The notes under the pieces were generated by a model, which was given only the letters and a program-made list of their open reading frames with translations, was not told where the DNA came from and did not search any database. Source: a virus. Taken from it: a stretch of DNA of 64,000 bases. The stretch covers positions 6,306 to 70,305 of the IMG/VR virus record IMGVR_UViG_3300027608_000028; one strand, given 5' to 3'. Shown piece after piece: positions 1,099 to 27,332 of this stretch (positions within the stretch are counted from its first letter, which is position 1; every line of letters begins with the position of its first letter). The translations under genes and the position numbers were made by a program.

Positions 1099-1136
1099 AG
1101 AGTAATTCTAACATAATTGTTTAAAAAAAGCAATCT

Positions 1137-2291
1137 TTAATTTTGTCGAATAATAACTGTTCCACATCCAGCTAGATTGGTACAGGTTTGTAATAAATTA
1201 ATGCTAAGTGGATTGGTAGTTGAACTTTGTATTAGATCCAAATTGTTTGGACCTCCAAGTCCTCTAGTCATGTCGATTGTTGCTTTGTTTGGCTGAGTAC
1301 CTTCTTGTACTATTACTGCATTATTTTGCGCCCCGTTCATTTTAAGATCTAAATAGTGCTGGCCAGTGCCTTTTTGCACAATGTCAGCAACATTACTATT
1401 TCCACTAACATCGATGAACATTATTTTATTTCCGTTATCATTTTGCTTGGCTACTATAGAATTTTGGTTACCGTAAATAGAAGTTGACATAAAATGGCCG
1501 CCCACACCGCCAGTGTTATTCTGCTGTAATGTCATTGAGTTGTTAGTACCCACCATATCTGTTTCTAAATAATGTCCATTTGAACCCTCAGGTGTACCAT
1601 TGACAGTTCTTCCTTGATTTACGTTAATAGTATTAGTATCTCCTAGTGTATTCATTTTAATTTGATTCTGGCCTATACCGATACCTCCTTGATTTATATT
1701 AGTAGTATTGGTATTTCCTTGCATAGTTAAATTAATTTCTCCATGTCCTTTTTGATCAATTGTAATAACGTTATTGTCACCAATTTGATCTATATAAATT
1801 AATTTATTAGGCGCCGTGTAATTTTGATGCAATGTTATTTTTGCTTGTTGTCCTTGTGTAATAACACTAGTGCCAGGCCCAGTTGTCATTGACAGTGAAG
1901 AGCCCTGAGAATTTGTTGTAGTTGTGACTGGCGGGCTACTAAAACTATAGTACCTGCCAGAATCTGGCCATGCTATGTTGCCATTGCCGTCGCTGGTATA
2001 AAGATACAAAAAGTCGCCGTTTAGTGTAGCATGGTCTACAATATAAGTTGTTCCTGAACATTCCGGACTTGTACAAGACGCTAGCCAGCCACTTAAATTA
2101 TTAATTCCTATTGTGGCTAGTGCATCAAACTCTGCTGGGTTGTTACCTCGGTACACAAATATATAGTCACTACCCTGTCCACTGACATTCATTGCCGGGC
2201 CAATAGTTGTTGCGTCTGCTCTTAATGAAAATAAAACCGCTATTACAAAAATTACTATTGCAATAATATAATCGTTAATATAATCTTTCAT
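1137..2291 (-). CDS. Secreted curlin-repeat (CsgA/CsgB-like) protein with an extra N-terminal domain
   Basis: Signal peptide. C-terminal half has recurring Q-x-G-x-x-N motifs ('IYIDQIGDNN', 'IVQKGTGQH', 'IVQEG'). Confidence 0.75.
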   Translation of the reverse strand: MKDYINDYIIAIVIFVIAVLFSLRADATTIGPAMNVSGQGSDYIFVYRGNNPAEFDALATIGINNLSGWLASCTSPECSGTTYIVDHATLNGDFLYLYTSDGNGNIAWPDSGRYYSFSSPPVTTTTNSQGSSLSMTTGPGTSVITQGQQAKITLHQNYTAPNKLIYIDQIGDNNVITIDQKGHGEINLTMQGNTNTTNINQGGIGIGQNQIKMNTLGDTNTINVNQGRTVNGTPEGSNGHYLETDMVGTNNSMTLQQNNTGGVGGHFMSTSIYGNQNSIVAKQNDNGNKIMFIDVSGNSNVADIVQKGTGQHYLDLKMNGAQNNAVIVQEGTQPNKATIDMTRGLGGPNNLDLIQSSTTNPLSINLLQTCTNLAGCGTVIIRQN

Positions 2292-2299
2292 AGTACTAC

Positions 2300-3418
2300 T
2301 TATTTTTGTGTCAACGTAATAATAGTGTTATTCCCAGAGTTAACACGATTCTTAAATTCTAAACTTCCCTGCGTCTGATATATTATCGCACTTTGTGTTA
2401 ATGGTATAGTTACACTTTGAATGTCACTGCCGTTATCTCTGTAAAGGGTTAATCCTAGTTCATCTTTAAATACTTGTATGCCGCTACTTCTTTTCCAATC
2501 TGGTAACTGACTATCTACGTCTTTTAGTAAGTCTTCGTTTAAGGCTCCGCCTACCATATCAAATATATTTTCTAAGAACGATGTTGTTGTTAGATAATCC
2601 TGACTTAGCCTATTACCGAAAAACTCTTTCTGTGAAGCATCTAGCGCATTTTCCAAACCTTTTTCTTTAAGGAAGTCTATATCCAGTGCGCTCTTAAAGC
2701 CTCGGCTTTCTCGGGCGGCGGCTTGTAATTCTTTTGGTGCTGTAAATAACATCATGTTGTTCATTTGATCTTCACTAAAATTTAATATAACTGGTCTTGT
2801 GGGAGCATTCATTCTACTAGATATTCGTGTAGCTTGAAATGCTTTATTTAAAATTACTGTACCCATATCGCTGGTAACTATAATTTCTCCTACTACACAT
2901 TCATATTCAATATCTTTTACAGTCCTTCCCGTTCTTGGCGCTGGACAACTGGGTAGCAATACAACTGTACTTGCTCCTACTTCGTCAACTGTTGTTGTAA
3001 AATCTGTACCCCTAACACCAATAGTAGCTGTGGGTGTAGTTATTGCAACATTTTGCGGATTATTTTTAGCTACCTGGCCTGATGCATATCTTACTGTACC
3101 TAATGCTATCTTAACTGCCAGCTTACCACCCGATTTACTTTTAGGATCATATACAAAATCATCTATTACTAATTTACTGTTTTCAGTTATCTGTACCTTA
3201 GTGTCATCTTCAAACGTAATACCAACTTTTCCTGATCCTGTTTTAATCGAATCATTCATTTCTATACCGGCTCCTTTGGTTCCTTCTACGGTGGACTTTG
3301 CTCGCTGAATCTGAGACACGGCGGCAATTTGTTCCGTGACTTTTCCAACAAATGCGCCTGCGTCCAATGATATACTGGCCAATAGTATTATGGCTCCAAA
3401 TAGTTTGTGCAATTTCAT
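2300..3418 (-). CDS. FecR-domain periplasmic protein
   Basis: Signal peptide; 'DSIKTGSGKVGITFEDDT', 'ITTPTATIGVRGTDF'. Confidence 0.85.
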   Translation of the reverse strand: MKLHKLFGAIILLASISLDAGAFVGKVTEQIAAVSQIQRAKSTVEGTKGAGIEMNDSIKTGSGKVGITFEDDTKVQITENSKLVIDDFVYDPKSKSGGKLAVKIALGTVRYASGQVAKNNPQNVAITTPTATIGVRGTDFTTTVDEVGASTVVLLPSCPAPRTGRTVKDIEYECVVGEIIVTSDMGTVILNKAFQATRISSRMNAPTRPVILNFSEDQMNNMMLFTAPKELQAAARESRGFKSALDIDFLKEKGLENALDASQKEFFGNRLSQDYLTTTSFLENIFDMVGGALNEDLLKDVDSQLPDWKRSSGIQVFKDELGLTLYRDNGSDIQSVTIPLTQSAIIYQTQGSLEFKNRVNSGNNTIITLTQK

Positions 3419-3427
3419 TTGCGTTCT

Positions 3428-4207
3428 TTAATTTCTGCTAGTCAGTGTAGTAACGTTTCCGTTACCAACGCTTTTTAAATTAATAGTAGAATCAACAGTT
3501 CCAGACTGGTTAATTACCGTAGTATTACTAGATCCGGCAATATCAACTTTAGCATAATGTCCTAAAGTACTGCCACCACTTTGTGTTATTGTAGTACTAT
3601 TGCTGGCTCCTACTGTAACAATATCAACCTGGCCTTTGTCTCCGGTCATATTTAAAATTGTTGCGTTGGCTCCGCCTCCAGTTTGATTAATTGTTGCTAT
3701 TACATCACTTGCATTTATATCTGCACTTAATGAATTATTGGCTCCGCCTGCTTGTATTGCGGTTAACGAATTATTAGTTCCTAGCATATTAATTGTTGCC
3801 AGTGAGTCATTACCATCTTGATCTATACTCAATGTTTGACTTGCGGCAAGTCCCAAGCCATCGCCATTAATGTTTATAGTAGCTATAGCATTATTGCCTT
3901 GTACTTTGTAAAATACATTAGTTGCATTGGATCCATTGGCCGTAGTAGTATCTACTCCCATGTTTAATATATTACCAGATCCTATTTGCTGGATACTTAA
4001 AAGAAGGCCATCGCCTCGAAGTCTGCTGGGCGTTGTATTACCTGTGCCTACGCCCTGTACAGCTCGTACTCTGTTTGAGGCTCCGTCCTGGAGCATCGTA
4101 ATTGTTGCGTTATCTCCTGCTTGGTCAATAAAAATACTGTTGTCTGCCGCTTGTGACGCTTGACTCAGTAATATTAACCCTAACAAAAATATTTGTTTTG
4201 TTGTCAT
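3428..4207 (-). CDS. Secreted curlin-repeat protein
   Basis: Signal peptide 'SQA-ADNSIFIDQAGDN'; ~23-aa QxGxxN repeats along the whole length. Confidence 0.8.
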   Translation of the reverse strand: MTTKQIFLLGLILLSQASQAADNSIFIDQAGDNATITMLQDGASNRVRAVQGVGTGNTTPSRLRGDGLLLSIQQIGSGNILNMGVDTTTANGSNATNVFYKVQGNNAIATININGDGLGLAASQTLSIDQDGNDSLATINMLGTNNSLTAIQAGGANNSLSADINASDVIATINQTGGGANATILNMTGDKGQVDIVTVGASNSTTITQSGGSTLGHYAKVDIAGSSNTTVINQSGTVDSTINLKSVGNGNVTTLTSRN

Positions 4208-4303
4208 ATGTTATATATGATGTGATAGTTTAACACACCATACCCTTTTGGTACTTCCCTACCTTATCTCTGAATTCACAAATATTCTAATTTGTGTTTC
4301 TGT

Positions 4304-5662
4304 TCATTCCAACAGATCTATGTGTATCCATCCGCCTTTATATTCGCTGTCTGTAACTTTTAGCCAACCGTCAAAGCCCAGTTGTCTAATTGATAATGTG
4401 GTTCCTTTAACGAACCACAACTTAGTTGCACTCTGTAAATTTGGTTCAGAATAGATGTGTCCTGATTCTTTAAGTTTCATTTTTCGGAATAATGTTATTC
4501 CTGCTAAACTAGTATTAGGTTTAACTCCAGTCGATATATCCACCGCTACGGGTTTGTTTTCTTTCTCGACTGGGGTTTCTTTAATGGGGGTACTTGCAGG
4601 CTCGGTAACTCCTCCAGCTGGCTTTGGTTCTTTGGGCCCGTCAATTTTGCTTCCTGCAGGTGCTTCTCTGCCATTGGACTCGAGTGATATGGGTGATGGT
4701 GCGGTTTGGGTGCCGGGGGATTCTTCCTTGCCGCTCTTTTGAACCAACTCATTTTTCACCTCTGGAGGCACTACTACAACTGTCTTCGGTGCAGGTGTTT
4801 CCACTACTACGGGTGGTATTATTTTTTCTTCTTTTAGTATCACTGGAGGTGTTACTGATGTTATAGTTTTTCTGTATTCCCATACGCCTTTCCTTTCGCC
4901 TTCTTTAATCAATTCTACTACTGCCATTTCAATAGCTGATTTAACTGCGTATGTGCCAGGCTCATTTATAGTTAAACCTAATTCAGCTTCGAATGCTTGT
5001 GTGCCAGCATCAAAAAATTTCAGTGCTGTAGCGGAATCTGCTGTACTTAAAATAGTTTTTTGTACATTTACTGTCATTAAAACTTTTCCTGTGTTAACTG
5101 ATATTGCACGTAAACTGACTGTTACTGTATCTGTGCTCCATTGAGTTTGTCTTCCAATTCCAAATATACGCATACCGGCGCCGCCGCTGGTAGTACTAGA
5201 GTCATATCCAATGATTCCACCCTCGACTATCATTCCTGCAAATTGTAATGGCATTAACGGTTTAGCATTTGAACCTTCATAGGCTTCGCGCATCTGTCTA
5301 ATTATTAAACGTTCCTTAGTAAGGTTATCTACGCCCACACGTTCTACTACTTCAAACCAATTACCAGCGCCAACGTCTTGTAATGCTTTAATTAAAAATG
5401 CTTCGGCGCCCTGTGTAACTGCCGAACTTAAACTGGCCACGTTAGCTTGTGGTCTACGTTGTCCAGTTTTATCTGCAAAACTGTATACTGCCACACTTAG
5501 CGGTTTCGTACTTGCTGGCAACGGAATATTAGCAAATTCTTTTTTAACTGCTTCGCGTTGCGTAGTTACCGTTGGATCCGATTCTGTAATGCCGGCAAAC
5601 TGCGACACCGCGCATCCGTTTAATATCACTAAGGTTGTAATATATAATAATCTTTTTATCAT
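4304..5662 (-). CDS. csgG: CsgG/HfaB curli secretion lipoprotein with a long Pro-rich linker and SH3-like C-terminal domain
   Basis: Lipobox 'ILNGC'; 'VAVYSFADKTGQRR', 'SSAVTQGA', 'WFEVVER', 'EGGIIGYD'. Start moved to ATG 5662, just after the csgF stop. Confidence 0.92.
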   Translation of the reverse strand: MIKRLLYITTLVILNGCAVSQFAGITESDPTVTTQREAVKKEFANIPLPASTKPLSVAVYSFADKTGQRRPQANVASLSSAVTQGAEAFLIKALQDVGAGNWFEVVERVGVDNLTKERLIIRQMREAYEGSNAKPLMPLQFAGMIVEGGIIGYDSSTTSGGAGMRIFGIGRQTQWSTDTVTVSLRAISVNTGKVLMTVNVQKTILSTADSATALKFFDAGTQAFEAELGLTINEPGTYAVKSAIEMAVVELIKEGERKGVWEYRKTITSVTPPVILKEEKIIPPVVVETPAPKTVVVVPPEVKNELVQKSGKEESPGTQTAPSPISLESNGREAPAGSKIDGPKEPKPAGGVTEPASTPIKETPVEKENKPVAVDISTGVKPNTSLAGITLFRKMKLKESGHIYSEPNLQSATKLWFVKGTTLSIRQLGFDGWLKVTDSEYKGGWIHIDLLE

Positions 5663-5663
5663 C

Positions 5664-6116
5664 TTAAAACTGGAACTGCCCCAATGGTATGACAATCGTT
5701 GTCTGATTTCCTACTGTATCTGTTACGACCAATGTTACACTAGTTGTTCCGTCCTTAGTCCAAAAAATAGTATTACCTTCAAAATTTAAAGTACCACTAG
5801 TAGCGCCACCATCTTTAAACATTGCTGTTGCAAGATTTTGTGATATTTGTGCGTAAATTCTAGATTCTAAATTGTTTAGAAACTTTTGTAGATTGGTATT
5901 CTTTTTGTCTGCCGCGGCCTTTTCTATTGCGGCTTGTATAGCATCACGGACAGACTTCTGACGAGTAAATTCTTGATTTTCTATCGTTAATACGTGACTA
6001 CTGTAGCCAATGCCATTAAATGCAGGGCTTTTAAAGGAAAAATCCGATATCGGTGCGGCCACTAAGTTTAGTGGCATAGCTATTGCGATTAAAAAGTATT
6101 TTTGTAGTTTTGTCAT
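5664..6116 (-). CDS. csgF: CsgF-like curli assembly protein
   Basis: 'FSFKSPAFNG', 'FLNNLESRIYAQISQNL', C-terminal 'TTIVIP'; adjacent to csgG. Confidence 0.85.
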   Translation of the reverse strand: MTKLQKYFLIAIAMPLNLVAAPISDFSFKSPAFNGIGYSSHVLTIENQEFTRQKSVRDAIQAAIEKAAADKKNTNLQKFLNNLESRIYAQISQNLATAMFKDGGATSGTLNFEGNTIFWTKDGTTSVTLVVTDTVGNQTTIVIPLGQFQF

Positions 6117-6196
6117 ATTTCATGTTATAAGCCACAATCAGAGCTCTAATGTATTTACAGTAAATCTGGCTAGAGTTAAAGTGTATGTTATCAGTC

Positions 6197-6226
6197 AAAA
6201 AAATACCCGTATAAAACGGGTATTTT
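6197..6226 (-). terminator. Rho-independent terminator after the tRNA
   Basis: AAAATACCCGT-loop-ACGGGTATTTT followed by a T-run on the minus strand. Confidence 0.8.
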
Positions 6227-6230
6227 AATG

Positions 6231-6305
6231 TGGTGGGCCAAGTAAGAATTGAACTTACACTCAATCGATTATGAGTCGACTGCTTTACCATTAAGCTATT
6301 GGCCC
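6231..6305 (-). tRNA. tRNA with CAT anticodon, most likely tRNA-Ile2 (lysidine type)
   Basis: GGGCCAA/TTGGCCC acceptor, encoded ACCA end, anticodon arm GTCGA-CTCATAA-TCGAT resembling E. coli ileX. Confidence 0.9.
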
Positions 6306-6311
6306 TTAACT

Positions 6312-6749
6312 TTATTGTCCTTTACGTAAACGTTCTTCTTTATGTCTAGTAAAAGCTTCTTCAAGAGCAGTATCCACTCTGACATTGCCAAATACTCTTT
6401 CAATCATATCGGTTATCATAAAACTAAACTTATCTCCTATTTGGCCTGGATCAGAATGCTCAAACCAAGTATAGTCAATGTTATACTTGGTTCCAGTGAA
6501 AGTTTCTTTCATCTTTATGTCTTTTAAAGTAATATCGTTGCGCCAGCATCTAAGTAAGTAATCTCTGTTATTTTTCCAGAATTTATATTTCCATGTCTTG
6601 CGTTCTTTACGTGTACATAACTTAACTACGGCAGTTGCGTGGTCCAATCGATTGCCCAATTGTTCTAGTTGTGTATCACTATCTGCCCTATTACGCATAG
6701 TAGTGCTACTTAGAACAATTGCATTTAAATTATCTTTAAATAAATTCAT
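6312..6749 (-). CDS. Hypothetical protein
   Basis: 145-aa ORF with an ATGA overlap to the upstream gene. Confidence 0.7.
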   Translation of the reverse strand: MNLFKDNLNAIVLSSTTMRNRADSDTQLEQLGNRLDHATAVVKLCTRKERKTWKYKFWKNNRDYLLRCWRNDITLKDIKMKETFTGTKYNIDYTWFEHSDPGQIGDKFSFMITDMIERVFGNVRVDTALEEAFTRHKEERLRKGQ

Positions 6750-6946
6750 TTGATGATTCCTAAACGATCTAAAATATATTTTTCTAGACTGGGCTCTGTA
6801 CGTGTCTCACCAAATGCCCAGATACATTCTCGCACAATCAACTTGGCAAACTTTTCTTTATCAAAGTCCCAACACACCCCATCATGGGCCGAAGGATCGA
6901 TGTAGGTAGTAGCCTGTTCAGCAAGTTGTTTAATTCGTTCATTCAT
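6746..6946 (-). CDS. 'MNERI...KFAxLIVxEC' family mini-protein
   Basis: MNERIKQLAEQA...EKFAKLIVREC; start corrected to 6946. Confidence 0.8.
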   Translation of the reverse strand: MNERIKQLAEQATTYIDPSAHDGVCWDFDKEKFAKLIVRECIWAFGETRTEPSLEKYILDRLGIIK

Positions 6947-7226
6947 CTTCAACTCCGAAATGATTTCTAAATCTAACAACCGCATCTACGATACCTTGAT
7001 TATTGCCTGTCAGGTATTCCCTAATTAATGGATCTTTTTCCTGAGCAATTTCTTCATCGGCAACAATCTCATCCATAGATTCTTTCAAACATTCTTTCAC
7101 AATTAACTCGGCGAACTTTGTCATAACAGTTGAGTCCAAGGTATTACCTGGATGATACATATACACAGCATCACCCCACACAGCAATACCAGCCTGTTCA
7201 GCCAGTTCTCTAATTCGTTCGTTCAT
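6939..7226 (-). CDS. 'MNERI...HFGVE' family mini-protein
   Basis: MNERIRELAEQA...KFAELIVKEC...HFGVEDE. Confidence 0.85.
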   Translation of the reverse strand: MNERIRELAEQAGIAVWGDAVYMYHPGNTLDSTVMTKFAELIVKECLKESMDEIVADEEIAQEKDPLIREYLTGNNQGIVDAVVRFRNHFGVEDE

Positions 7227-7438
7227 TTTCCAACTCCAAAATGTTGTTTAATCTTATCCGCATAGGTGCTTGCGGGTTCACAGTGATCTACTGCATCCGT
7301 AACAATCTTAGCACATTCCCTAACAATCAACTCGGCGAACTTTTCCTGGTCTAATGCTTTGATTTCTGTATATCCACCATCAGTATATCCAACAACTTTT
7401 TGAGCCTGTAGAGCAAGTTCTCGAATTCGTTCGTTCAT
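7223..7438 (-). CDS. 'MNERI...HFGV' family mini-protein
   Basis: MNERIRELALQA...KFAELIVREC...IKQHFGVGK. Confidence 0.85.
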   Translation of the reverse strand: MNERIRELALQAQKVVGYTDGGYTEIKALDQEKFAELIVRECAKIVTDAVDHCEPASTYADKIKQHFGVGK

Positions 7439-7596
7439 TTTCCAACTCCGAAATGTATTTTAATCCACCGGTTAATCTCCGCTAATACCTCTTCGGTAAC
7501 ATCTTTGACCTCACCTGTTGGAACACAAGGTTCTTGTTCCCAAGTGCAGATTGTTTTACTTTTTCCATCTTGCTCGACCACAACCGATAGTTTCAT
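7435..7596 (-). CDS. 53-aa hypothetical protein ending in HFGVGK
   Basis: Below the ORF-track cutoff: MKLSVVVEQDGKSKTICTWEQEPC...IKIHFGVGK. Coupled to neighbours at both ends. Confidence 0.7.
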   Translation of the reverse strand: MKLSVVVEQDGKSKTICTWEQEPCVPTGEVKDVTEEVLAEINRWIKIHFGVGK

Positions 7597-7814
7597 TACT
7601 TACGCTCCTCAACTGCCCATGCCCAATGAACGGTGCACCAATCTTCTATGCATCGTTCACGACTAATTTCTGCTTTATGATTATTTTCAAGCATTTTAGT
7701 TGACCAATATGTGTAATATGATTTGATGATTTGATCTTCTGTCCATGTCTCTACAACATCTTGGCCGAATTCGCCAGGAAATGCTATAGACCAATGTTTC
7801 ATTTGTTCGTTCAT
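7596..7814 (-). CDS. Hypothetical Trp-rich protein
   Basis: 72 aa, ends 'CIEDWCTVHWAW'; starts at a junction repeat. Confidence 0.75.
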   Translation of the reverse strand: MNEQMKHWSIAFPGEFGQDVVETWTEDQIIKSYYTYWSTKMLENNHKAEISRERCIEDWCTVHWAWAVEERK

Positions 7815-8014
7815 TCTTCAACTCCGAAATGTTTCTGTGGGTAATAGTAATAACAATACGGCCTGTTGGTGTTCCAATCTCCCGCCATGCCAGCCAAATC
7901 CTGTAGGCTATCCACAGCGCGAGCTGTCATGCTGTCATGCACAATCCATGGTGTGTCACGCCTTGCCCGCAGGTATTGCCTAAGATAGATCCGGCTTTGT
8001 TCCAGTTGGTTCAT
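7811..8014 (-). CDS. Hypothetical protein ending in KHFGVEE
   Basis: Start re-assigned to the ATGA overlap at 8014 (MNQLEQSR). Confidence 0.7.
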   Translation of the reverse strand: MNQLEQSRIYLRQYLRARRDTPWIVHDSMTARAVDSLQDLAGMAGDWNTNRPYCYYYYPQKHFGVEE

Positions 8015-8112
8015 TCTGTAGTTGTCCTGGAATCTATATTTGAACGGTATGCCATGTATAGCACACCCACTATGTATCCTGCCAAGAATCCCCAAAATAA
8101 ATCCCAAGTCAT
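8011..8112 (-). CDS. 33-aa single-TM peptide
   Basis: MTWDLFWGFLAGYIVGVLYMAYRSNIDSRTTTE; ATGA overlaps at both ends, GGAG SD. Confidence 0.7.
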   Translation of the reverse strand: MTWDLFWGFLAGYIVGVLYMAYRSNIDSRTTTE

Positions 8113-8339
8113 TCTTCAACTCCGAAATGTTCTTTAATCGCTACATAACTATCAACCCCGCACTGGACATAACCATCCCGATGCGTGTCCTTCATCATAA
8201 GTTCATCTTCTAGCACGGGCAGATATTGTTCTCTTACTTGATTCATGCATTCCTTGACAATCAACTCGGCAAACTTTTTTGTCTCAATTGTAAGTTCTAA
8301 TTCAGCCTCTGAGGCAAGTTGTTGAATTCGTTTGTTCAT
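8109..8339 (-). CDS. 'MNxRI...HFGVEE' family mini-protein
   Basis: MNKRIQQLASEA...KFAELIVKEC...IKEHFGVEE. Confidence 0.85.
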   Translation of the reverse strand: MNKRIQQLASEAELELTIETKKFAELIVKECMNQVREQYLPVLEDELMMKDTHRDGYVQCGVDSYVAIKEHFGVEE

Positions 8340-8344
8340 GATAC

Positions 8345-8554
8345 TTACTTCTTTGGTTTAGTGGGCATAACGGGGAATGTGCCCCACGGTTGATTGTAGT
8401 ATTGATCTAGGTCCTGGGGACCACCTTGGTCTACCCATAGCTTGGCGATAGTGATTACAGGATTACCGTCCACTATGCAATATCTAACCAAGTGGTCAGC
8501 ATGTTCATAAGTACCATCTGGTACCCAGCCAAACATTCTAAACCGTTCGTTCAT
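8345..8554 (-). CDS. Hypothetical protein
   Basis: Start at the ATGA overlap (MNERFRMFGW). Confidence 0.7.
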   Translation of the reverse strand: MNERFRMFGWVPDGTYEHADHLVRYCIVDGNPVITIAKLWVDQGGPQDLDQYYNQPWGTFPVMPTKPKK

Positions 8555-8787
8555 AACTTTTCTCCACAATGTGGACACAGTTTGATATTAGCATTACGCA
8601 TTTCTTTTAGTGTCTTGTTTAGTTTCTTTGCATCAGCAGTAATCCTGCGTATGGCTTTACGGTCTCGTTCACCTTTGGCTTTGCTTAATTCTTCTTTAAG
8701 GTGTAGCTTCATTTTGTTAAGTCTACCCTCAAAGATTTCAATGAAGCCCGTTATTCCCGTACCACTGCTTGTGGGTGTACCGTTCAT
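8551..8787 (-). CDS. Coiled-coil protein with C-terminal CPHCG knuckle
   Basis: Start at the junction ATG 8787; ends LCPHCGEKL. Confidence 0.75.
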   Translation of the reverse strand: MNGTPTSSGTGITGFIEIFEGRLNKMKLHLKEELSKAKGERDRKAIRRITADAKKLNKTLKEMRNANIKLCPHCGEKL

Positions 8788-9137
8788 TCTTCGACTCCAA
8801 AATGTTTTGCAATTGCATAGCCGACCCAAGATATACCTAGTTTTTCTGCATCATCCTCGCACACTTCATCTACTTTATCAACCTGTGCTAGACATTCTTG
8901 CACAATCAACTTGGCGAATTCTCTATAATCAAAATCACGCAACCCTTCATGATCACTACCGTAAGGAGCAATCAGGCCAGCTTGTATCGCAAGTTCTTTA
9001 ATTCGCATTTGACCCAACGATTGATTGCGGCCTTTAACAAATTCGTCATACTTTTCTTTAGTGCCTATACTATAGCCGCCGTCGCCAGCGTGGATGTCTG
9101 CACCTGCTTTAATAGTTGCTTTAATAGTTTCGTTCAT
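8784..9137 (-). CDS. Fusion of an unrelated N-terminal module to an 'RIKELA...HFGVEE' family domain
   Basis: MNETIKA...QMRIKELAIQAG...EFAKLIVQEC...IAKHFGVEE. Confidence 0.8.
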   Translation of the reverse strand: MNETIKATIKAGADIHAGDGGYSIGTKEKYDEFVKGRNQSLGQMRIKELAIQAGLIAPYGSDHEGLRDFDYREFAKLIVQECLAQVDKVDEVCEDDAEKLGISWVGYAIAKHFGVEE

Positions 9138-9529
9138 CTGGATAATTCTCTGAGCACTCGATAAGTATTCCATGCTTCTTTAACTGCAACATTAGTTACA
9201 GAATCGCCGTCTGATGGAATTACGTCAAGCCAGACTTCGCGACTACGATGAGCACCGGCGCCAAATTTACGTGGTTGATGCAATTTGCCGTCATCCCATA
9301 GCATAATACTTACACTACGGAACTTAGATTCATCTTCTTCGGGGTAGTCATACCACTCGGGGTTACTGAGGCCATGGCGCCCACGATAGCCTTGCCAAAT
9401 GCCACTCCACTGCTCGTCGTCGTGCGGATCGAAATCCGTGCGACTAATAACTACAAGGACATCGTCAATGCTTACTGTGCCGTCAACGATGTCCCTGACA
9501 CATCGACTATAGCTTTGGCCGACCTTCAT
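9134..9529 (-). CDS. Hypothetical phage protein
   Basis: 131-aa ORF, coupled to neighbours. Confidence 0.75.
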   Translation of the reverse strand: MKVGQSYSRCVRDIVDGTVSIDDVLVVISRTDFDPHDDEQWSGIWQGYRGRHGLSNPEWYDYPEEDESKFRSVSIMLWDDGKLHQPRKFGAGAHRSREVWLDVIPSDGDSVTNVAVKEAWNTYRVLRELSR

Positions 9530-9530
9530 G

Positions 9531-9746
9531 TTAGGCCGCTTTGCTAGTCAGCTCTACTACTCGGTACACGGCCGAGCTACTACGGTACAACCAACTTGCG
9601 TCGATCTCCGCGTCTTTGCGGTCCTCATAAACACAACCGGGTTCAGCACCTGCATACGCACATGCAGGACCTTTATAGGCATCTTCTGCCACATAAACCG
9701 CATTGTGCGGTTGCTTTGTTTCTTTATAAATGATAAACATTATCAT
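9531..9746 (-). CDS. Hypothetical protein
   Basis: AAGGAAC SD upstream. Confidence 0.7.
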   Translation of the reverse strand: MIMFIIYKETKQPHNAVYVAEDAYKGPACAYAGAEPGCVYEDRKDAEIDASWLYRSSSAVYRVVELTSKAA

Positions 9747-9810
9747 GTTCCTTTTCTTAAATTAAAATAAAACTGTACTATTTCGAAAACCTTATTGTTT
9801 TTCTAATACT

Positions 9811-10491
9811 TCATTGCGCCTCCGAGAGTAGTTTAACATAATTTAAGTAAGTAGTTTTAAATCCATCTCTACTAACTTTTCGATCTTTAACACGGCACCG
9901 AATTTTTACATTTTTGCCGATATATGTAATTGGATCTGTTTTCATATAAAATCCAACTAAATTATTTTCCACAGTTTTTGCTGTCACCGTCCAACAATTA
10001 TACAACGGAAGCAAGGTACTTGTCAATATGTTGATGTCCAAAAGAAAGGTTGCTTTAGTCAAAGCCGTTGTAGAAATGTATTCGCTTCGGTTTCCCACAC
10101 TTGAGATATTGTCGCGATCTTTTTCTCTTTTTATATCTGTGTTATACACTTTGCCGAGACTTGCAACGATACCGAATTCAAATCTAGACAATTCATCTTT
10201 AACAATAAGTTGTGATATTGCTGTTTCAAAATTGTTAAGCCGATTTGTTATACCTTTAAACAAGATACCTTTAAAATGTTCATACATTTCATTTCCAATA
10301 GAAATGTCATCGGCATTAAATTCAATGTCGGACTGCAATGCAGTTTGCATTATGTCTTTATTGAGAATTTTTGATTTTTGTGTAGCCGGATCTTGTTCGT
10401 ATCCGTTAACATAACCATTATTAATCCTATATGCCATAGCACTGGCAATGAATACGTTAACGGTCGGGTACTTGGGTTTCTTTGTGGCCAT
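9811..10491 (-). CDS. Hypothetical protein, possible C-terminal OB-fold-like region
   Basis: Ends 'VKIRCRVKD...TTYLNYVK'; the fold is inferred. Confidence 0.7.
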   Translation of the reverse strand: MATKKPKYPTVNVFIASAMAYRINNGYVNGYEQDPATQKSKILNKDIMQTALQSDIEFNADDISIGNEMYEHFKGILFKGITNRLNNFETAISQLIVKDELSRFEFGIVASLGKVYNTDIKREKDRDNISSVGNRSEYISTTALTKATFLLDINILTSTLLPLYNCWTVTAKTVENNLVGFYMKTDPITYIGKNVKIRCRVKDRKVSRDGFKTTYLNYVKLLSEAQ

Positions 10492-10693
10492 CTGTTTCAA
10501 TCTCTGTTAGTAGTCTGAAAATTCTTGCGTTACTGTACCATATGCTAGTGAGATCACAAGTTAAAGTTAATGCTATTACTATCCAAAAACCTGGATGGGT
10601 TAATTGAATTCCGATTTGATGTAGAGTATACCCGATGGCTATGTAAGCAAGGCCTTTTATTGCTAGCCATAGCATTTCTTGTAATAGTGTCAT
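10457..10693 (-). CDS. Small two-TM membrane protein
   Basis: Two hydrophobic segments. Confidence 0.65.
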   Translation of the reverse strand: MTLLQEMLWLAIKGLAYIAIGYTLHQIGIQLTHPGFWIVIALTLTCDLTSIWYSNARIFRLLTEIETDGHKETQVPDR

Positions 10694-10742
10694 TCATATA
10701 TTTACCCATATTAATTAATTCTTTTATTGCGATGCAATTTAA

Positions 10743-11021
10743 TTACATGCTCCAATAAGTTTCACTAGCAGGATTGCAACACCAAGGAGTGTCTGCATCG
10801 ATTTCTACAGGCTTACCCGACATCAAATTCTTTACAGTAATTTTAGGTGCGGTGTAGGTAGCACGGTCCACAATGTTCAGTTGGTTTTCTGTCCAACCTG
10901 CTTTGTTGCACAAACGAGTTCTAGTGGCCTTTGCGGCACCAAAAGTTTTGTAAGCACGGGTCTTGTTAGGACCATCTGTTACGATAAGACCAGTACCTTT
11001 TGCAACGATTACATAACTCAT
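10743..11021 (-). CDS. Hypothetical early protein
   Basis: Own promoter and SD; ends 'DTPWCCNPASETYWSM'. Confidence 0.8.
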   Translation of the reverse strand: MSYVIVAKGTGLIVTDGPNKTRAYKTFGAAKATRTRLCNKAGWTENQLNIVDRATYTAPKITVKNLMSGKPVEIDADTPWCCNPASETYWSM

Positions 11022-11078
11022 TGTGAATTCCTTTTGTTTCTAAGTATTAATTATAACACCAAAACCAATTTATGTCAA

Positions 11079-11471
11079 TTAAATTGATTCAACGGTGTAA
11101 GGCTTATTCCACTTGCCAATATTAACGTCAACATACCAACCCACATCAAAGTAGTCAGTTTGGATATCACTGTTATCGTGATTACCGTTATTCATAGCAG
11201 GGATAACTTCGCTTAAGAAGTTTTTGGCATTGCCAACAAAATGACTTTTGTAGTGATAAGGGTTAACTTGAATGCCGAACTTTTTAGCATCAGCTCGGGA
11301 TTCCGGAGTGTCACCGTAATCAGTAATAAAGTCAATTTTGCCGGACTTGACATTTAGCACAAGAGTCATATGATTGCGAACTGCAATACTGGCCTTGACA
11401 CCATACTTTTTACAGATAGCCTTGATCTTAGGCGTCAGCTTTGACTTCAAATCCTGGGAAACGTATGCCAT
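11079..11471 (-). CDS. Hypothetical early protein (LPD29-like)
   Basis: 'NHDNSDIQTDYFDVGWYVDVNIG' motif; family assignment from memory. Confidence 0.7.
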   Translation of the reverse strand: MAYVSQDLKSKLTPKIKAICKKYGVKASIAVRNHMTLVLNVKSGKIDFITDYGDTPESRADAKKFGIQVNPYHYKSHFVGNAKNFLSEVIPAMNNGNHDNSDIQTDYFDVGWYVDVNIGKWNKPYTVESI

Positions 11472-11538
11472 CTTTAACTCCTATTTGTTGCTGTCTATGT
11501 GTATATTATACAATTAATTGGATTTATTGTCAACCAAT

Positions 11539-11865
11539 TTAATGGCTGTTCAATGCTGGATTATGCTTGCGAATCAATTCACGTTCCCTAGCATGGGCTG
11601 GCTTGCGGCCACGTAGGATTTCTACAAGACCGTAAGTATGAGCCAATGTGCCATGTTCACGAATTGACTTGCACAATTCCCAATCTTTGTTTTCTGTCAA
11701 TGCACGACGAACGTGTTTTTGAATACGTACTTTCAATGATTTCTGTACTGTGTCTGACACCACAGTAATGCCAATATACTGTTGTTTTGTTACAACATTC
11801 GTGATTACGTAGACTGCATGTTTGCGGTCCTGACGTCTTTTGCGGTATACTTTTTTACTGTCCAT
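11539..11865 (-). CDS. GIY-YIG nuclease-like protein
   Basis: 'AVYVITN...QYIGIT...RIQKH...ERELI...LN'. ATG lies 6 nt after the -10 box. Confidence 0.75.
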   Translation of the reverse strand: MDSKKVYRKRRQDRKHAVYVITNVVTKQQYIGITVVSDTVQKSLKVRIQKHVRRALTENKDWELCKSIREHGTLAHTYGLVEILRGRKPAHARERELIRKHNPALNSH

Positions 11866-11918
11866 GAGTATATTATACAATTAATCCAATTAATTGTCAA
11901 CCAAAAAAACTGTTGTTT

Positions 11919-12290
11919 TTATGCAACAGATTCAGTATGCTTGCAATTACGGCGATAAGTGTACCCGGGACAACTGCATGATAAAGTACTACCTTTTAAA
12001 GTTACTGTATAAGTATTACCTTTTGACCCTGCAATAGTCCATACTTTTGATGGGTTATCGGCTAGTACTTCAGTATTAGTTATTTCGGGCTCTAAATTGT
12101 AGTTAAAAGTATTAGCTACTTCTTCAAATTTTCTTCCCCTTGTCCCAAACCCAAAGGGCTTTGAAAACGTAAAAACAAAGTCGGTCCCATGCCTTACGTA
12201 CCCGTATGCTTTGCTTTTATCGTCCGACAGCAAGTATACGTGATTGGGAACAGAATCGGCCCACTTAGTTGTCTCTAGGTAAAATTTCAT
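11919..12290 (-). CDS. SWIM zinc-finger protein
   Basis: 'GSKGNTYTV...CSCPGYTYRRNCKH'. Confidence 0.85.
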   Translation of the reverse strand: MKFYLETTKWADSVPNHVYLLSDDKSKAYGYVRHGTDFVFTFSKPFGFGTRGRKFEEVANTFNYNLEPEITNTEVLADNPSKVWTIAGSKGNTYTVTLKGSTLSCSCPGYTYRRNCKHTESVA

Positions 12291-12329
12291 AGTATCCACA
12301 TTATACAATTAATTGGATTTACTGTCAAC

Positions 12330-12932
12330 CTACATAGTGGGGCCGTTTCCGTTCTTGAATCCTACACTTCCGCCTTCTGCTTCAATACGTGCTATAACGT
12401 CTTCAAACAAAATAGGTGCAAAGTCAGTTTGTTCAACACAAACGCAATGGTAACGTGGATCAATTTCATCACTGTACAAAATTTCTCCTGTACGTGCATC
12501 TACACCACGAGCTTTACGCACACGATTTGCGTGAGTATGTCCGTGAATGTTAGTACCAAAACGACCCATGCTATCACTGTGTAACGGAATATGACTTAAT
12601 ATCATTCCATTCATCACGTGGTATGCACGTAATTCACGGAAGTACATTCGGTACTCATCATCACGAAAGATGTCATGGTTACCACGAATCAAAACTTTGT
12701 CGCCGTTTAAGCGGCCTAATGTCTTTAAGGACTTGCGGTTAATAACTGCATCGCCTAAATGGTACACTTTATCTGTGGGCTTGACCTTGGCGTTCCATTT
12801 TGCAATCATATCTTCGTCCATTTCTTCGGGCGTGTCGTATGGTCGTAATTTGGTTACCCCGTCGTTACGGGTAAACTTACAGACACCCATGTGTCCAAAG
12901 TGTGTGTCACTGACTAAAAATACTGAGGGCAT
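12330..12932 (-). CDS. Calcineurin-like metallophosphoesterase
   Basis: DTHFGH, HLGD, GNHD, SHIP and HGHTH motifs. Confidence 0.92.
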   Translation of the reverse strand: MPSVFLVSDTHFGHMGVCKFTRNDGVTKLRPYDTPEEMDEDMIAKWNAKVKPTDKVYHLGDAVINRKSLKTLGRLNGDKVLIRGNHDIFRDDEYRMYFRELRAYHVMNGMILSHIPLHSDSMGRFGTNIHGHTHANRVRKARGVDARTGEILYSDEIDPRYHCVCVEQTDFAPILFEDVIARIEAEGGSVGFKNGNGPTM

Positions 12933-12933
12933 A

Positions 12934-13122
12934 TTATTTCCTTCCAATTCTTTCTGCAATTTTCAGTTTGACCCACTCAAGATGTTCGTTAAACATCTTA
13001 GGGCCATTCGGGTAATTAATTACTGCTAACTCAAACTGAGTACGGATAGCAATCAATTCTGTCATAGACTTTTTAGCATATTCTGCTTCTTGGTCATACT
13101 GATTTCCATTGTTGTAAGCCAT
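12934..13122 (-). CDS. Hypothetical protein
   Basis: AAGGAG SD; 62 aa. Confidence 0.7.
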   Translation of the reverse strand: MAYNNGNQYDQEAEYAKKSMTELIAIRTQFELAVINYPNGPKMFNEHLEWVKLKIAERIGRK

Positions 13123-13137
13123 ACCATACTCCTTTCT

Positions 13138-13311
13138 TTAATAAGTTTCTTTTACAATATTATACTCTTCGACTGGCCACGTGGCCTTGAACTCGTCCGA
13201 CTTAACATATTCATTATATGCTTTGGCATCAAAAAACATCCTGTGAAACTCTGTTTTCATTGAACCAATTTTGGTTACTGTTAAGTAAATTGATTTTGCT
13301 TTGCCAGCCAT
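13138..13311 (-). CDS. 57-aa hypothetical protein
   Basis: MAGKAKSIYLTVTK...NIVKETY, downstream of promoter 13339-13367 with an AAGG SD. Confidence 0.7.
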   Translation of the reverse strand: MAGKAKSIYLTVTKIGSMKTEFHRMFFDAKAYNEYVKSDEFKATWPVEEYNIVKETY

Positions 13312-13363
13312 ATGATACCTTTTATTGTTTAATGTGATATTATAACATCACTTTGCCATAATG

Positions 13364-13846
13364 TCAAACGTACCAAATTTCTTTAAAGCCTTCTAATAGA
13401 GTTGGTTCTTCCCAATTTGCAATCATATCGTCAATGACTATTTTTGGAATATGCTTGCCGGGACGGCTAGCCAAACGCACATCCAACTCGCTACGTTCCG
13501 GAGTCCGGAATACAACGGCGATATGCTCGTAGTTCAATGACTCTGGTAATGCGTTAAACTTTCGAGCACGACTTTTAACAGTAGTGCTAGTCTGATCCCA
13601 AACAATATCCAATTGCAAGGCCGCGGCCATGTTAACATTAACCATCATTTGTTTGACCGCGGTGGGCATGTATTCTTCAAAGACTTCACTGTAGGTTTTG
13701 CCCTGATCCTCAGCATATCCTTCAACATGCTGGTCAGTACTAACATACTTGTGATCCTTTTTATCCTCGCCCAGCCAGCCCTGATTTTTATACCAAGTAC
13801 TTTTGCCAGCGGCAGGAACTCCAATTAGTTGATAACACTTTGGCAC
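13364..13846 (-). CDS. P-loop kinase (AAA_33 / polynucleotide-kinase-like)
   Basis: Walker A 'GVPAAGKST', 'VSTD', 'VWDQT...R'. Confidence 0.85.
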   Translation of the reverse strand: MPKCYQLIGVPAAGKSTWYKNQGWLGEDKKDHKYVSTDQHVEGYAEDQGKTYSEVFEEYMPTAVKQMMVNVNMAAALQLDIVWDQTSTTVKSRARKFNALPESLNYEHIAVVFRTPERSELDVRLASRPGKHIPKIVIDDMIANWEEPTLLEGFKEIWYV

Positions 13847-13902
13847 AACAATCCTTTAAATGAATTGCTATTATATAATTAAATGAATTAATTGTCAACC
13901 AA

Positions 13903-16179
13903 TTATTTTTTGCCCAATATACGGCGTGGGTATATGGCTCCTGACGCAGTAACCTGCGGCCAATATGCAGTATTGGCATCCGGCTGTCTAGTCACTCTCA
14001 ATGAAATATTTCTAGTAGAATTTGGCCAAAGAACTCCGGTAGTATTACGCTCGTACTTGTATGTTTGATAAAATTTCTGACTACCCCATAATGCATTTCT
14101 GTAATTTGCAGAAGTAACCGGTGTAGTGTCTTCCATTGCTATGGTGGCAGTGGTTTGTAGATACTTCTTCAATTCATAATTAGTCCAATGTGGATACTGT
14201 TCTAAGATACAGGCCGACATACCGCAGACCATTGGACCTGCCATACTCGTTCCGCTTAACTTGTTAAGATAGAAAGCCGAGTTCCTTGGATCTGGAACCG
14301 CCGGTGTCACATAAGATGCATTTAAAAACGCACCCATTATCATACTGCCTGGACCCCATATATCTACGCCTGGACCAGTATCACTATAGTATGCTTTCTT
14401 TTCCAATGATCCGTGATCAATTGCGCCGATACAAACTCTAGTAGAATCAGTGCCAGCCGAATTAGGACTAGATCCTTGTTCATAATATATGTCTTGTCCG
14501 CCAATTGTAACAGTATTATTATAATCAGGGCCCGACACTAAATCGTGTCTCCACCCATTATTACCGGCACTGCCCATTGTTATTATGCCTTCTGCCATGG
14601 CATCTTCATAGTCGACATCAACGCTTATTACTTTGGCAGGAAAATTCTGACCTGTTATAAAATGCCAATTAAACAATTCAGCGGAAGTAAATCCAGAAGT
14701 ATTTGATTGTACCTTGGCATTGATTCCTACCTTTAAATCTATTCGTGTGGGGAAATTTTTATAAAAAGTATATTCGTATATTTGATTCGGTGATCCAGTT
14801 GTCCCGGACCAACTACTAGTACCCTCGATATATATTCTATATGTTCTATCATTACTAGAACCTTCTTGTCCGTAATATATTCTTTGAACACTATTATCGC
14901 CTGCGGTTAACATTATCTTCGGACCAGCTGGATTTGACGGAGAAAGATTAGTATATACCGTACTACCACTGCCAAAAGTAAGATACCCATTTGTTCCTAC
15001 ATATACTGATGTTTGGCCTGCGCCTAGAAAACTTATAATAAATGGTAAATCTATTCTCCAGTAACCATCATCATTATTGCCTACCGTAGGAGCAGTAGAA
15101 AAATATTGTAATCCTGCAGGACTACTTGGTAGATTATTATCAGTAAGAGCTTGCACTTGTATGCTGGCTCCGTCGCTGGTAATTGTTTGGCCGCTGTTAA
15201 TAAACGATACTAATTCTGCAGACGGAGTACCGGTATTTCCGTATACTCCACTAACGCCAGTCGGTGCTGGAGGACCTGTAACAGGAGTATATGTTGTTCC
15301 CCTGTATATAACTCTACTGATCTGTGATGCACTACCACCGCCGCTATAATATCCCCAACTGTTATTAACAATAGTAGGATTTTTTCTTCCTGTTTCTGGA
15401 TTAATAGGTTTATACTTATGAAACATCCTGACATAATCCATTGGTTCGTCAACTGTTGTGAAATCTAAATTGTATATATTTGCATCGCGGGCCCAGCCCA
15501 TTGTATTGCCTGCTACTGTCGACGATGTATGCGTTGAATGTCCAGAACCCTGATATGCATAATTATATGTTGAATTGGCGCCGCGGCCAATTTCTGCATT
15601 ATGTTGAAACCAATTATACCTAACTATTCTGGTGCCGCCTGTGCCGTCGGGATTCTTAGCAAATTCGGGGTGAGCTGAGTCAGGGTGACCTTCGTCGATT
15701 ATAATCACATCAACATTTCTTCCTGAACTAGTAGTGTTCACAGTAGCAGTGACATTAGGATAATTAGCACTACCCCAAGCCGAAAGGCCTTGTGCTCCGT
15801 AATTTGTTCCATTAATTACTCTGAGCAAGCCCCATGGTTTCATATCATTGGTTGTTGTATCGCTTTTATTCCATTTAGTAGATGTCTGCGATGCAAGCCA
15901 ATTTAATTTTTTTATTAGTCCACGCAAGTTAGGAGCCAAATCAATATTCATTACTCTCGGATCCAACGCAAGTTTGGCCACTTCTACACTATTAAGCATA
16001 TAGTTCGTTGTCTTGCTGATTGATCGGCGGTTAACACATTCAACTATTCTATTAGGGCATACTCTATGCAACCCAGTTGTTAGTTGTTCCATGTCCTTAT
16101 AAAACTGATCAAGGTCAGTTTTATCGTTGAGGGTAACTTCGTATTCTTCTAATATTTCGTGTGGTTGTAATTCAGACAT
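13903..16179 (-). CDS. Subtilisin-family (S8) serine protease with an inserted domain
   Basis: Catalytic motifs 'VDVIIIDEG', 'HSTHTSSTVAG', 'SAGN' and 'SGTSMAGP'; N-terminal propeptide. Confidence 0.92.
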   Translation of the reverse strand: MSELQPHEILEEYEVTLNDKTDLDQFYKDMEQLTTGLHRVCPNRIVECVNRRSISKTTNYMLNSVEVAKLALDPRVMNIDLAPNLRGLIKKLNWLASQTSTKWNKSDTTTNDMKPWGLLRVINGTNYGAQGLSAWGSANYPNVTATVNTTSSGRNVDVIIIDEGHPDSAHPEFAKNPDGTGGTRIVRYNWFQHNAEIGRGANSTYNYAYQGSGHSTHTSSTVAGNTMGWARDANIYNLDFTTVDEPMDYVRMFHKYKPINPETGRKNPTIVNNSWGYYSGGGSASQISRVIYRGTTYTPVTGPPAPTGVSGVYGNTGTPSAELVSFINSGQTITSDGASIQVQALTDNNLPSSPAGLQYFSTAPTVGNNDDGYWRIDLPFIISFLGAGQTSVYVGTNGYLTFGSGSTVYTNLSPSNPAGPKIMLTAGDNSVQRIYYGQEGSSNDRTYRIYIEGTSSWSGTTGSPNQIYEYTFYKNFPTRIDLKVGINAKVQSNTSGFTSAELFNWHFITGQNFPAKVISVDVDYEDAMAEGIITMGSAGNNGWRHDLVSGPDYNNTVTIGGQDIYYEQGSSPNSAGTDSTRVCIGAIDHGSLEKKAYYSDTGPGVDIWGPGSMIMGAFLNASYVTPAVPDPRNSAFYLNKLSGTSMAGPMVCGMSACILEQYPHWTNYELKKYLQTTATIAMEDTTPVTSANYRNALWGSQKFYQTYKYERNTTGVLWPNSTRNISLRVTRQPDANTAYWPQVTASGAIYPRRILGKK

Positions 16180-18719: not shown

Positions 18720-18728
18720 AATATTTCC

Positions 18729-19751: not shown

Positions 19752-19781
19752 TTTGTGTCTCTCTAATAGTTAATTATACTA

Positions 19782-20639: not shown

Positions 20640-20640
20640 G

Positions 20641-22687: not shown

Positions 22688-22708
22688 ATATGATATTTAT
22701 AATTAAAG

Positions 22709-22732: not shown

Positions 22733-22735
22733 TTA

Positions 22736-27331: not shown

Positions 27332-27332
27332 G

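Follow-up and report, generated by a model that had tools for sequence, protein, structure and literature searches.

Constant coding blocks in a small-gene array of an uncultured freshwater phage as probable sites of gene and half-gene exchange

The 64,000-nucleotide stretch analysed here (the window) spans positions 6,306 to 70,305 of the IMG/VR virus contig IMGVR_UViG_3300027608_000028. The contig is 70,305 b long, with a CheckV completeness of 22%, and relatives of a gene neighbouring the array described below sit on contigs of 340–350 kb; it probably derives from an uncultured freshwater phage with a genome of about 300 kb. The subject of this work is an array of small genes at 6746–9137 on the minus strand, the strand that carries 88 of the 95 open reading frames (ORFs) in a greedy non-overlapping call of the window. 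The array consists of five paralogs of one protein family (the family) and six small cargo ORFs. Each family gene carries three constant blocks, termed head, core and tail, which enclose two variable segments: V1 lies between head and core, and V2 between core and tail. Labels beginning with L denote fetched viral-contig loci, and those beginning with X denote public sequencing runs. The ORFs of the array are:

8784–9137, minus strand: F1_117, family member ending in HFGVEE (family profile, E 6.6e-29)
8551–8787, minus strand: zn78, non-family cargo of 78 aa with a zinc-ribbon-like C-terminal end (CPHCG), starting with MNG directly after a motif joint
8345–8554, minus strand: h69, non-family cargo with the family head MNER
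8109–8339, minus strand: F2_76, family member (E 1.3e-40); V2 and tail (8106–8287) are 92% identical to L240
8011–8112, minus strand: tm33, hydrophobic cargo ORF of 33 aa whose start is the ATGA of a motif joint
7811–8014, minus strand: t67, non-family cargo with a captured HFGVEE tail
7596–7814, minus strand: h72, non-family cargo with the head MNEQ
7435–7596, minus strand: t53, cargo with its own N-terminal part and the family C-terminal block IKxHFGV
7223–7438, minus strand: F3_71, family member; 7307–7438 is 95.5% identical to L202, with head, V1 and core in common and V2 not
6939–7226, minus strand: F4_95, family member ending in HFGVEDE, with an 8-nt overlap onto the next gene; 7101–7254 is 92% identical to L132
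6746–6946, minus strand: F5_66, family member with the diverged tail RLGIIK (E 3.6e-23)

A first-pass annotation, made from the DNA letters alone, had counted 12 small genes in this region. Eleven ORFs, including the hydrophobic ORF at 8011–8112, lie inside 6746–9137, and 12 are reached only with one flanking gene. The statement that nearly all genes are translationally coupled holds, as 11 of the 12 joints overlap when the two outer joints are counted. Nine joints are ATGA overlaps of 4 nt; the others are one 8-nt overlap (6939–6946), one 1-nt overlap of the form TAATG (7596) and one 5-nt gap (8340–8344).

Six gene boundaries had been reported to share a DNA motif, and CATTTYGGAGTYGRAR indeed occurs in six exact copies, all on the minus strand, compared to 0.49 expected by chance. 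With up to two mismatches the window holds seven matches, a number reached in none of 100 shuffles, and the 70,305-b contig contains no exact copy elsewhere. The copies are located as follows:

8789–8804, minus strand: junction motif copy with the codons for HFGVE; the stop TGA overlaps the next ATG
8114–8129, minus strand: junction motif copy
7816–7831, minus strand: junction motif copy
7440–7455, minus strand: junction motif copy
7228–7243, minus strand: junction motif copy
6947–6962, minus strand: junction motif copy

The GGAG within the motif sits 7 nt before the next ATG. The motif was said to be usually followed by ACGAAC; this hexamer follows exactly at three of the six joints (7814, 7438 and 7226), is shifted at 6946 and is absent at 8787 and 8112. 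No promoter-like site was found at or between the joints, the sole minus-strand match inside the array being a 9/12 match within a gene (7745–7718). Upstream of the array, the minus strand matches the sigma-70 consensus at 12 of 12 positions at 11078–11050 and at 10026–9997. The latter match falls within a TTG-start ORF (9811–10500, 229 aa), which may be shorter than called.

The first-pass annotation had overlooked that five of the array ORFs are paralogs of a single phage-only family and that this family has a third, internal constant block. Because the five ORFs are paralogs, the junction is the C-terminal block of the family followed by its N-terminal block. Matches of the five paralogs to a profile of the family have E values of 1e-22 to 1e-40. 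Applied to the cargo, the same profile yields 0.023 for t67, 0.099 for t53 and 0.58 for h69, with h72 and zn78 not among the matches listed. Family members in the array are 66–117 residues in size and follow the consensus MNERIxELAxQA – variable – KFAELIVxEC – variable – IxxHFGVEE. Invariant in the alignment of the five paralogs are M1, R4, I5, L8, A9 and A12, followed by F, A, L, I, V, E, C and G, and the segments between the blocks differ widely in length. At the DNA level, the head block reads ATG AAC GAA CGA ATT.., the core block AAG TTC GCC GAG TTG ATT GT.. (repeat family D1) and the tail block CAT TTC GGA GTT GAA GAA TGA. The core blocks of the five genes are:

8892–8921, minus strand: core block EFAKLIVQEC of F1_117 (D1 copy 8890–8932)
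8247–8276, minus strand: core block KFAELIVKEC of F2_76 (D1 repeat)
7313–7342, minus strand: core block of F3_71, crossover point in comparison with L202/L203; Logan contigs break at 7313/7345
7089–7118, minus strand: core block of F4_95; alignments to other loci end at 7099–7101
6824–6853, minus strand: core block of F5_66; an alignment to another locus ends at 6834

F1_117 additionally has two heads, first MNETIK and then, from 9008, MRIKELA, which are separated by an insert of 43 residues. The insert region (8989–9114) has matches of 82–84% nucleotide identity in L060 and L278, so it appears to behave as a separate module.

This work brings to light a very large family that has no match in Pfam or PHROGs, as neither database returned a match for the family ORFs of the window. 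Among representatives of clusters at 50% identity, the profile search found 6,370 matches at E ≤ 1e-3, of which 617 reach E ≤ 1e-10. At the level of 90% clusters, 7,880 of 8,000 scored candidates match at E ≤ 1e-3. None of the 120 matches listed for the family has a Pfam domain, and the look-alike clusters are all viral and all labelled ‘hypothetical’. Among isolated phages, tblastn of F4_95 found no match, and blastn of the region gave one match of 129 nt. A total of 185,579 prokaryote species genomes contained 16 loci only. Fifteen are on contigs of metagenome-assembled genomes (14 of these at most 20 kb, most of them from aquatic taxa) and the sixteenth is a weak Streptomyces match; these matches give no clue to a host. 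Literature searches turned up no paper describing the family or the phenomenon, and the related finds were only the papers on promoter-early stem-loop (PeSL) cassettes and gp38 adhesins cited below.

The 26-nt junction pattern is present in more than 131 viral contig stretches. For 142 unique junction instances from other phages, the upstream ORF belongs to the family in 120/126 cases and the downstream ORF in 111/138. The proposal that any captured ORF could be inserted at the junction is therefore too broad: the handle consists of the conserved ends of one paralog family.

Cargo ORFs carrying only one end of a family gene are present as first described, with the tail on t67 and t53 and the head on h72, h69 and zn78. 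That unrelated ORFs acquired these ends agrees with the comparisons for the tail of t67 and for the heads of h69, h72 and zn78. There are 44 homologues of t67, and 20 of the 21 aligned lack the HFGV tail, most of these ending RTTE-like; among t67 relatives, the tail occurs only in the window copy and in P0124. By this comparison, t67 has clearly captured the family tail. All 13 homologues of t53 carry an FG-type tail (12 FGV, one FGG), and t53, judged by these homologues, is an established small sub-lineage. The homologue of h69 in L010 (58% identity) has an N-terminus of 11 residues instead of MNER. Six homologues of h72 in the fetched loci start with M[IRK].. and lack MNE, and their alignments begin at or after window residue 5. 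For zn78, the homologue in L060 also follows an HFGVEE joint and starts with MN, and the homologue in L025 has no such joint before the gene and starts with MS.

Short hydrophobic ORFs resembling tm33 (37–41 aa, with an MNE head) were observed after junctions in L008, L037 and L048, and may represent recurrent membrane mini-peptide cargo. The C-terminus of tm33 is RTTTE, followed by ATGA and MNQLEQ (8011–8119); homologues of t67 also end RTTE-like, which may point to a second kind of junction. If tm33 is instead read from a TTG start (102 aa), it matches the N-terminal extension of P0127.

Third codon positions had been suggested as a check, and in all three blocks synonymous codons are fixed relative to the background, indicating conservation at the DNA level. 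The ORFs for this comparison were chosen by the core peptide alone, so that tail and head were free to vary, which resulted in 121 unique ORFs from 79 loci; the codon use of these same genes served as background. Within this sample, 68 ORFs start with MNERI, 57 end with HFGVEE and 98 have a 4-nt ATG overlap with the next gene. Tail codons were counted in the 82 ORFs with a.FGV.. tail. The counts are:

Tail, Gly as GGA: 82/82 (background 0.27)
Tail, Phe as TTC: 60/82 (background 0.22)
Tail, Val as GTT: 78/82 (background 0.42)
Tail, stop as TGA: 82/82
Head, Asn as AAC: 91/105 (background 0.33)
Head, Arg as CGA: 70/79 (background 0.20)
Head, Leu as CTT: 73/97 (background 0.20)
Core, Lys as AAG: 112/120 (background 0.35)
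Core, Phe as TTC: 94/121 (background 0.22)
Core, Ala as GCC: 107/121 (background 0.22)
Core, Glu as GAG: 106/119 (background 0.18)
Core, Leu as TTG: 108/121 (background 0.27)

The ribosome site and the gene overlap account for GGA and TGA, but not for the codons of the core.

Breakpoints were predicted to map inside the junction. In pairwise comparisons of junction instances, in alignments and in blastn searches, similarity between contigs was found to start and stop there. After identical contexts had been collapsed, 135 instances were compared pairwise (9,045 pairs) over 90 nt on each side. Identity was at least 80% on one side and below 50% on the other in 23 pairs, and at least 80% on both sides in one pair. 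The alignments switch identity within the junction, also for shared non-family genes (L066/L085/L122 and L064/L095). An all-against-all blastn of 69 non-overlapping loci yielded high-scoring segment pairs (HSPs) that terminated at tail-type gene ends 86 times and traversed them in no case, compared to 67 terminations and 21 traversals for other gene ends (Fisher p 2.5e-7, or 1.1e-3 with the counts halved, as each HSP is seen twice). Of the 370 valid HSP ends, 86 are no more than 30 nt away from tail-type gene ends, which make up 2% of the sequence.

Exchange is also indicated inside the genes. A set of 346 unique family ORFs was split into V1 and V2, and a segment was counted as shared at a nucleotide identity of at least 85% over at least 70% of its length; ORFs collapsed as duplicates came almost all from identical or near-identical contigs. 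Sharing was found in 64 pairs for V1, 66 for V2 and three for both. Between different contig groups the values are 59, 59 and 0, with 141 of the 346 ORFs involved. F3_71 illustrates this pattern: it is about 97% identical to a gene of L202 across head, V1 and core, beyond which the two genes are unrelated up to the tail. The V2 of that L202 gene reappears in L086 behind another V1. The V segments are discrete alleles, 85–97% identical, which are reused in different combinations.

When positions 1–14000 of the window were compared to all fetched loci by blastn, each array HSP of at least 100 nt spanned one variable segment or one cargo gene (6834–6946, 7099–7254, 7219–7346, 7307–7438, 8106–8287, 8551–8807 and 8989–9114). 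Unless cut by the edge of a locus, all ends of these HSPs are in a block or at most 13 nt from one.

The constant blocks are conserved at synonymous sites and mark where similarity between unrelated phage contigs begins and ends. We consider it likely that the array is a coupled operon whose constant DNA blocks mark the exchange of half-genes, whole genes and a few foreign ORFs between phages. The earlier view of the junction as a portable recombination handle is supported, and is extended here to three blocks, including the internal core at which half-genes are shuffled. Where family genes are in tandem, their tail and head are fused into the junction. The GGA-G of the tail would act as the ribosome-binding site of the next gene, the ATG of which is overlapped by the stop TGA. 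In the proposed mechanism, ordinary homologous or short-homology recombination at the blocks of 20–50 nt would take place between paralogs and between co-infecting phages, thereby swapping half-genes, whole genes and occasionally foreign ORFs. Each exchange would preserve the reading frame, the fold scaffold, with the blocks placed in three helices, and the translational coupling.

The scaffold is derived from an AlphaFold2 model of F3_71, based on 69 sequences, with a predicted local distance difference test score (pLDDT) of 93.1. The model features a helix at residues 3–11 (head), a beta-hairpin at 13–29 (V1), a helix at 31–51 (core and start of V2) and a helix at 56–67 (end of V2 and tail). 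Accordingly modelled, the constant blocks would form the scaffold and the variable segments would be exposed; because of this arrangement, any combination of V1 and V2 could probably fold. Foldseek found no match in the PDB at E ≤ 1e-3, a wide PDB search gave a best Z of 5.8, which is under the noise level of the tool, and matches in BFVD were only uncharacterised proteins of uncultured phages.

If the array were the result of plain tandem paralogy, the junction would represent only the ends of neighbouring copies, conserved at the protein level, and would play no part in exchanging DNA. Such an origin would fit the presence of five paralogs among the 11 ORFs, the location of most junctions elsewhere between two genes of the family, and the GGAG/ATGA arrangement, which is ordinary translational coupling. 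It is nonetheless unlikely, since synonymous codons are fixed even in the core, which has no ribosome-site role, and between contigs V1 and V2 show no linkage (59, 59 and 0 pairs). The difference between tail-type ends (86 terminated, 0 traversed) and other ends (67 and 21) and the presence of a tail or head on non-family genes also speak for exchange at the blocks instead.

Parts of the stretch were found in 20 public freshwater runs from 16 studies, whose data were compared as k=31 contigs. An RNA run contains 0.93 of the sampled window words, with the caveat that RNA libraries can carry DNA. The k=31 contigs break at junctions and cores, where depth climbs from about 20 to several hundred; the blocks are therefore common to many genomes per sample. 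The earlier expectation that cassette content varies is supported by an X11 contig (1,815 nt, depth 13.9) that lacks four genes of the window. It runs from 9648 to 8545 and then directly from 7804 to 7586. The missing piece is:

7805–8544, minus strand: 740-nt block missing in the X11 contig (h69, F2_76, tm33 and t67), bounded by the 10-nt direct repeat ATGAACGAAC

Each of the two ends of this block opens with ATGAACGAAC when read on the coding strand, at the heads 8554 and 7814. A 10-nt repeat cannot mis-join a k=31 graph without real spanning words. Other apparent joints in the runs have sides of 23–33 nt and come from family genes of other phages; those that run backwards have sides of 29–33 nt, a length for which the tool warns of an origin in other organisms. 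All of these were excluded from the counts and provide no evidence for circles.

Blocks of 25–50 nt that are common to many genomes per sample, with the depth rise and the contig breaks just described, are also places where assemblers could mis-join different phages, and all relatives are assemblies. As a general explanation such an artefact is nevertheless improbable. Several of the window's joints are spanned without a mismatch by contigs of other studies (X2 records 19, 20 and 23; X8 record 27), and exact window proteins (P0037, P0011 and P0026) were called on 4, 5 and 8 contigs, respectively. Furthermore, a sequencing read is longer than the blocks, the 10-nt repeat at the join of the X11 deletion could not create it in a k=31 graph without spanning words, and the sharing of halves touches 141 of 346 ORFs.

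Several points weigh against exchange at the constant blocks. Recombination was not directly observed, and since the k=31 contigs break at the blocks, neither circles nor frequencies can be read from them. As the relatives are metagenome assemblies, mis-joins at repeats of 25–50 nt are possible contig by contig. The same pattern would arise without hot spots if a selection filter let through only in-frame exchanges at the blocks, and the codon fixation of tail and head can partly be explained by the ribosome site and by translation initiation. In the blastn comparison of the 69 loci, 219 of the 370 valid HSP ends are separated by more than 30 nt from every called gene 3′ end and are unclassified. 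For the array itself, generous block definitions cover 34.5% of its length, so that 20 of 43 HSP ends inside blocks is a modest excess only; a further 16 are within 12 nt of blocks and seven are farther away. No close relative of this array was found, so there is no comparison of gene order between sister phages. The upstream 131-aa protein has 64 relatives with 53–66% identity in differing neighbourhoods (10 family ORFs among their 2,548 ORFs), and no relatives were found for the downstream 145-aa protein. Finally, Pfam identified no recombinase in the 64 kb: integrase, recombinase and reverse transcriptase families are absent among the 95 window ORFs (16 + 79; E ≤ 1e-5 for reverse transcriptase), in a contig that is about 22% of the genome.

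The last point bears in the opposite direction on a site-specific cassette system, integron-like or driven by an endonuclease, in which the junction would be the recognition site of a dedicated enzyme. The sharply defined motif, the cargo unrelated to the family and the HNH/NUMOD3 endonuclease genes near arrays in 3/69 loci are in line with such a system. We regard it as very unlikely, because in addition to the window ORFs the 36 commonest neighbour clusters of the 69 loci also contain no integrase or site-specific recombinase; they comprise DNA ligase (8 loci), phosphoesterase, 5′–3′ exonuclease, RNA ligase and similar. Single-stranded DNA folding of 80-nt windows at the six joints gave z values of −0.09, −2.29, −1.01, +0.98, +0.14 and +0.70 and no common stem, the joints folding no better than shuffles in five of six cases. 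Exchange also occurs at the core block, whose sequence differs from the junction. With about 22% of the genome in the contig, a dedicated enzyme may still be encoded elsewhere. The first-pass comparison to an integron-like array is not upheld, as no integrase and no joint hairpin were found here and the cargo is mostly of one family.

Targeted hypermutation of V1 and V2 in an otherwise young family, in the manner of a diversity-generating retroelement (DGR), is highly improbable: blocks identical at synonymous sites around unalignable segments and an Mtd_N domain protein encoded in the window would suit it, but the V segments are discrete alleles (85–97% identical) in varied combinations and of widely varying length, and a Pfam scan of the 64 kb gave no reverse transcriptase at E ≤ 1e-5, with no template-repeat search made. 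Mtd_N is the N-terminal domain of the DGR tropism determinant; the protein concerned is encoded at 54112–54807 on the minus strand (PF18454, E 8e-7).

Homology-based exchange at constant blocks, as preferred here, shares traits with several known systems. In T4-type phages, PeSLs are described as short repeated motifs that separate small, non-essential genes of plastic regions and supply the expression signal of the downstream gene; insertions, deletions and replacements between phages occur there by recombination (Arbiol et al. 2010, PMC2839356; Comeau et al. 2014, PMC4122927). In these accounts, PeSLs are intergenic sigma-70 promoters with terminator stem-loops, for which mini-circles were demonstrated (PMC2839356, PMC4122927). 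As far as these descriptions go, the present motif is similar in that it repeats between small genes, carries an expression signal and contains the breakpoints of indels and replacements. Unlike the PeSLs so described, it is coding and comprises the final six codons of one gene together with the opening codons of its successor, in overlapping genes with no intergenic DNA; it provides a ribosome site and start rather than a promoter, has no stem-loop and is tied to one protein family.

Within genes, the closest likeness is to the gp38 tail-fibre adhesins of T-even phages, in which glycine-rich motifs are reported to separate hypervariable segments (Trojet et al. 2011, PMC3157838). These conserved motifs are described as the structural core, and exchanges within or near them lead to chimeric proteins (PMC3157838). 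Measured against that description, conserved motifs separate variable segments in both cases, with exchange in or near the motifs. However, protein and fold appear unrelated, and here a protein of 70–95 residues accommodates two variable segments along with three blocks. It is encoded by many copies in tandem in each genome, and its terminal blocks have the further roles of coupling translation and joining whole genes. gp38 was not among the fold matches and the family ORFs had no Pfam or PHROG match, searches that a distant kinship could escape. The likeness to gp38 is treated here as one of design, not of membership.

Like integron arrays, the genes studied here are small, co-oriented and without promoters of their own, with variable content and a repeated separator. 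Unlike in integrons, no IntI tyrosine recombinase or attC-type hairpin was found, the units are mostly of one family, and the exchange looks homology-based and also takes place inside genes. The array is therefore neither an integron nor a PeSL array, although it works in a PeSL-like manner for whole genes and in a gp38-like manner inside genes. The modular theory of Susskind and Botstein reportedly invoked ‘linkers’, short conserved boundary sequences in lambdoid phages. The constant blocks resemble such linkers as short conserved sequences at module boundaries that serve as homologous exchange sites; they differ in being protein-coding, codon-conserved and repeated within one operon and across thousands of genes. 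If the blocks act as crossover sites, the linker idea of phage modular evolution would have an unusually clear-cut example in nature here. Such coding linkers would let thousands of mini-genes of freshwater phages trade halves and neighbours and keep frame, fold and expression. The tail block also constitutes a compact natural part for translational coupling.

With regard to function, our guess is that the family members are small, diversified binding proteins that are produced early during infection. More tentatively, the family could form a population-wide combinatorial library of small binders, with three helices as a constant scaffold and codon-identical blocks as built-in crossover sites that mix V1 hairpins, V2 loops, genes and cargo; all products would remain in frame, able to fold and translated from the ribosome site within the tail. 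This possible recombination-based diversity generator would be distinct from integrons, DGRs and PeSLs, and might be directed against fast-changing host targets such as defence proteins. The family is likely to matter in early infection, and its members could be used as a ready-made library of small binders or inhibitors to test.

The commonest non-family neighbour of the arrays is an unnamed 145-aa protein (e.g. L068:6420–6857), present in 10/69 loci and with no Pfam match at E ≤ 1e-3. Elsewhere in the window, the region 2300–6116 on the minus strand encodes a FecR-domain protein (2300–3418), adjoining a CsgG-like protein (4304–5695; PF03783, E 9e-47) and a CsgF-like protein (5664–6116; PF10614, E 6e-12). 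The latter two relate to curli secretion, and it is unusual for a phage to carry curli-secretion genes. Host-like genes are densely packed at 17638–32279 on the minus strand, a block which encodes ClpX, ClpP, ClpS, IF3, Hsp20, a protein with an IMPDH/GMP-reductase domain, three tandem fatty-acid desaturases, an enoyl/FabG-type reductase, a ketoacyl synthase and NifU. A fourth fatty-acid desaturase is encoded outside this block, at 41467–42189.

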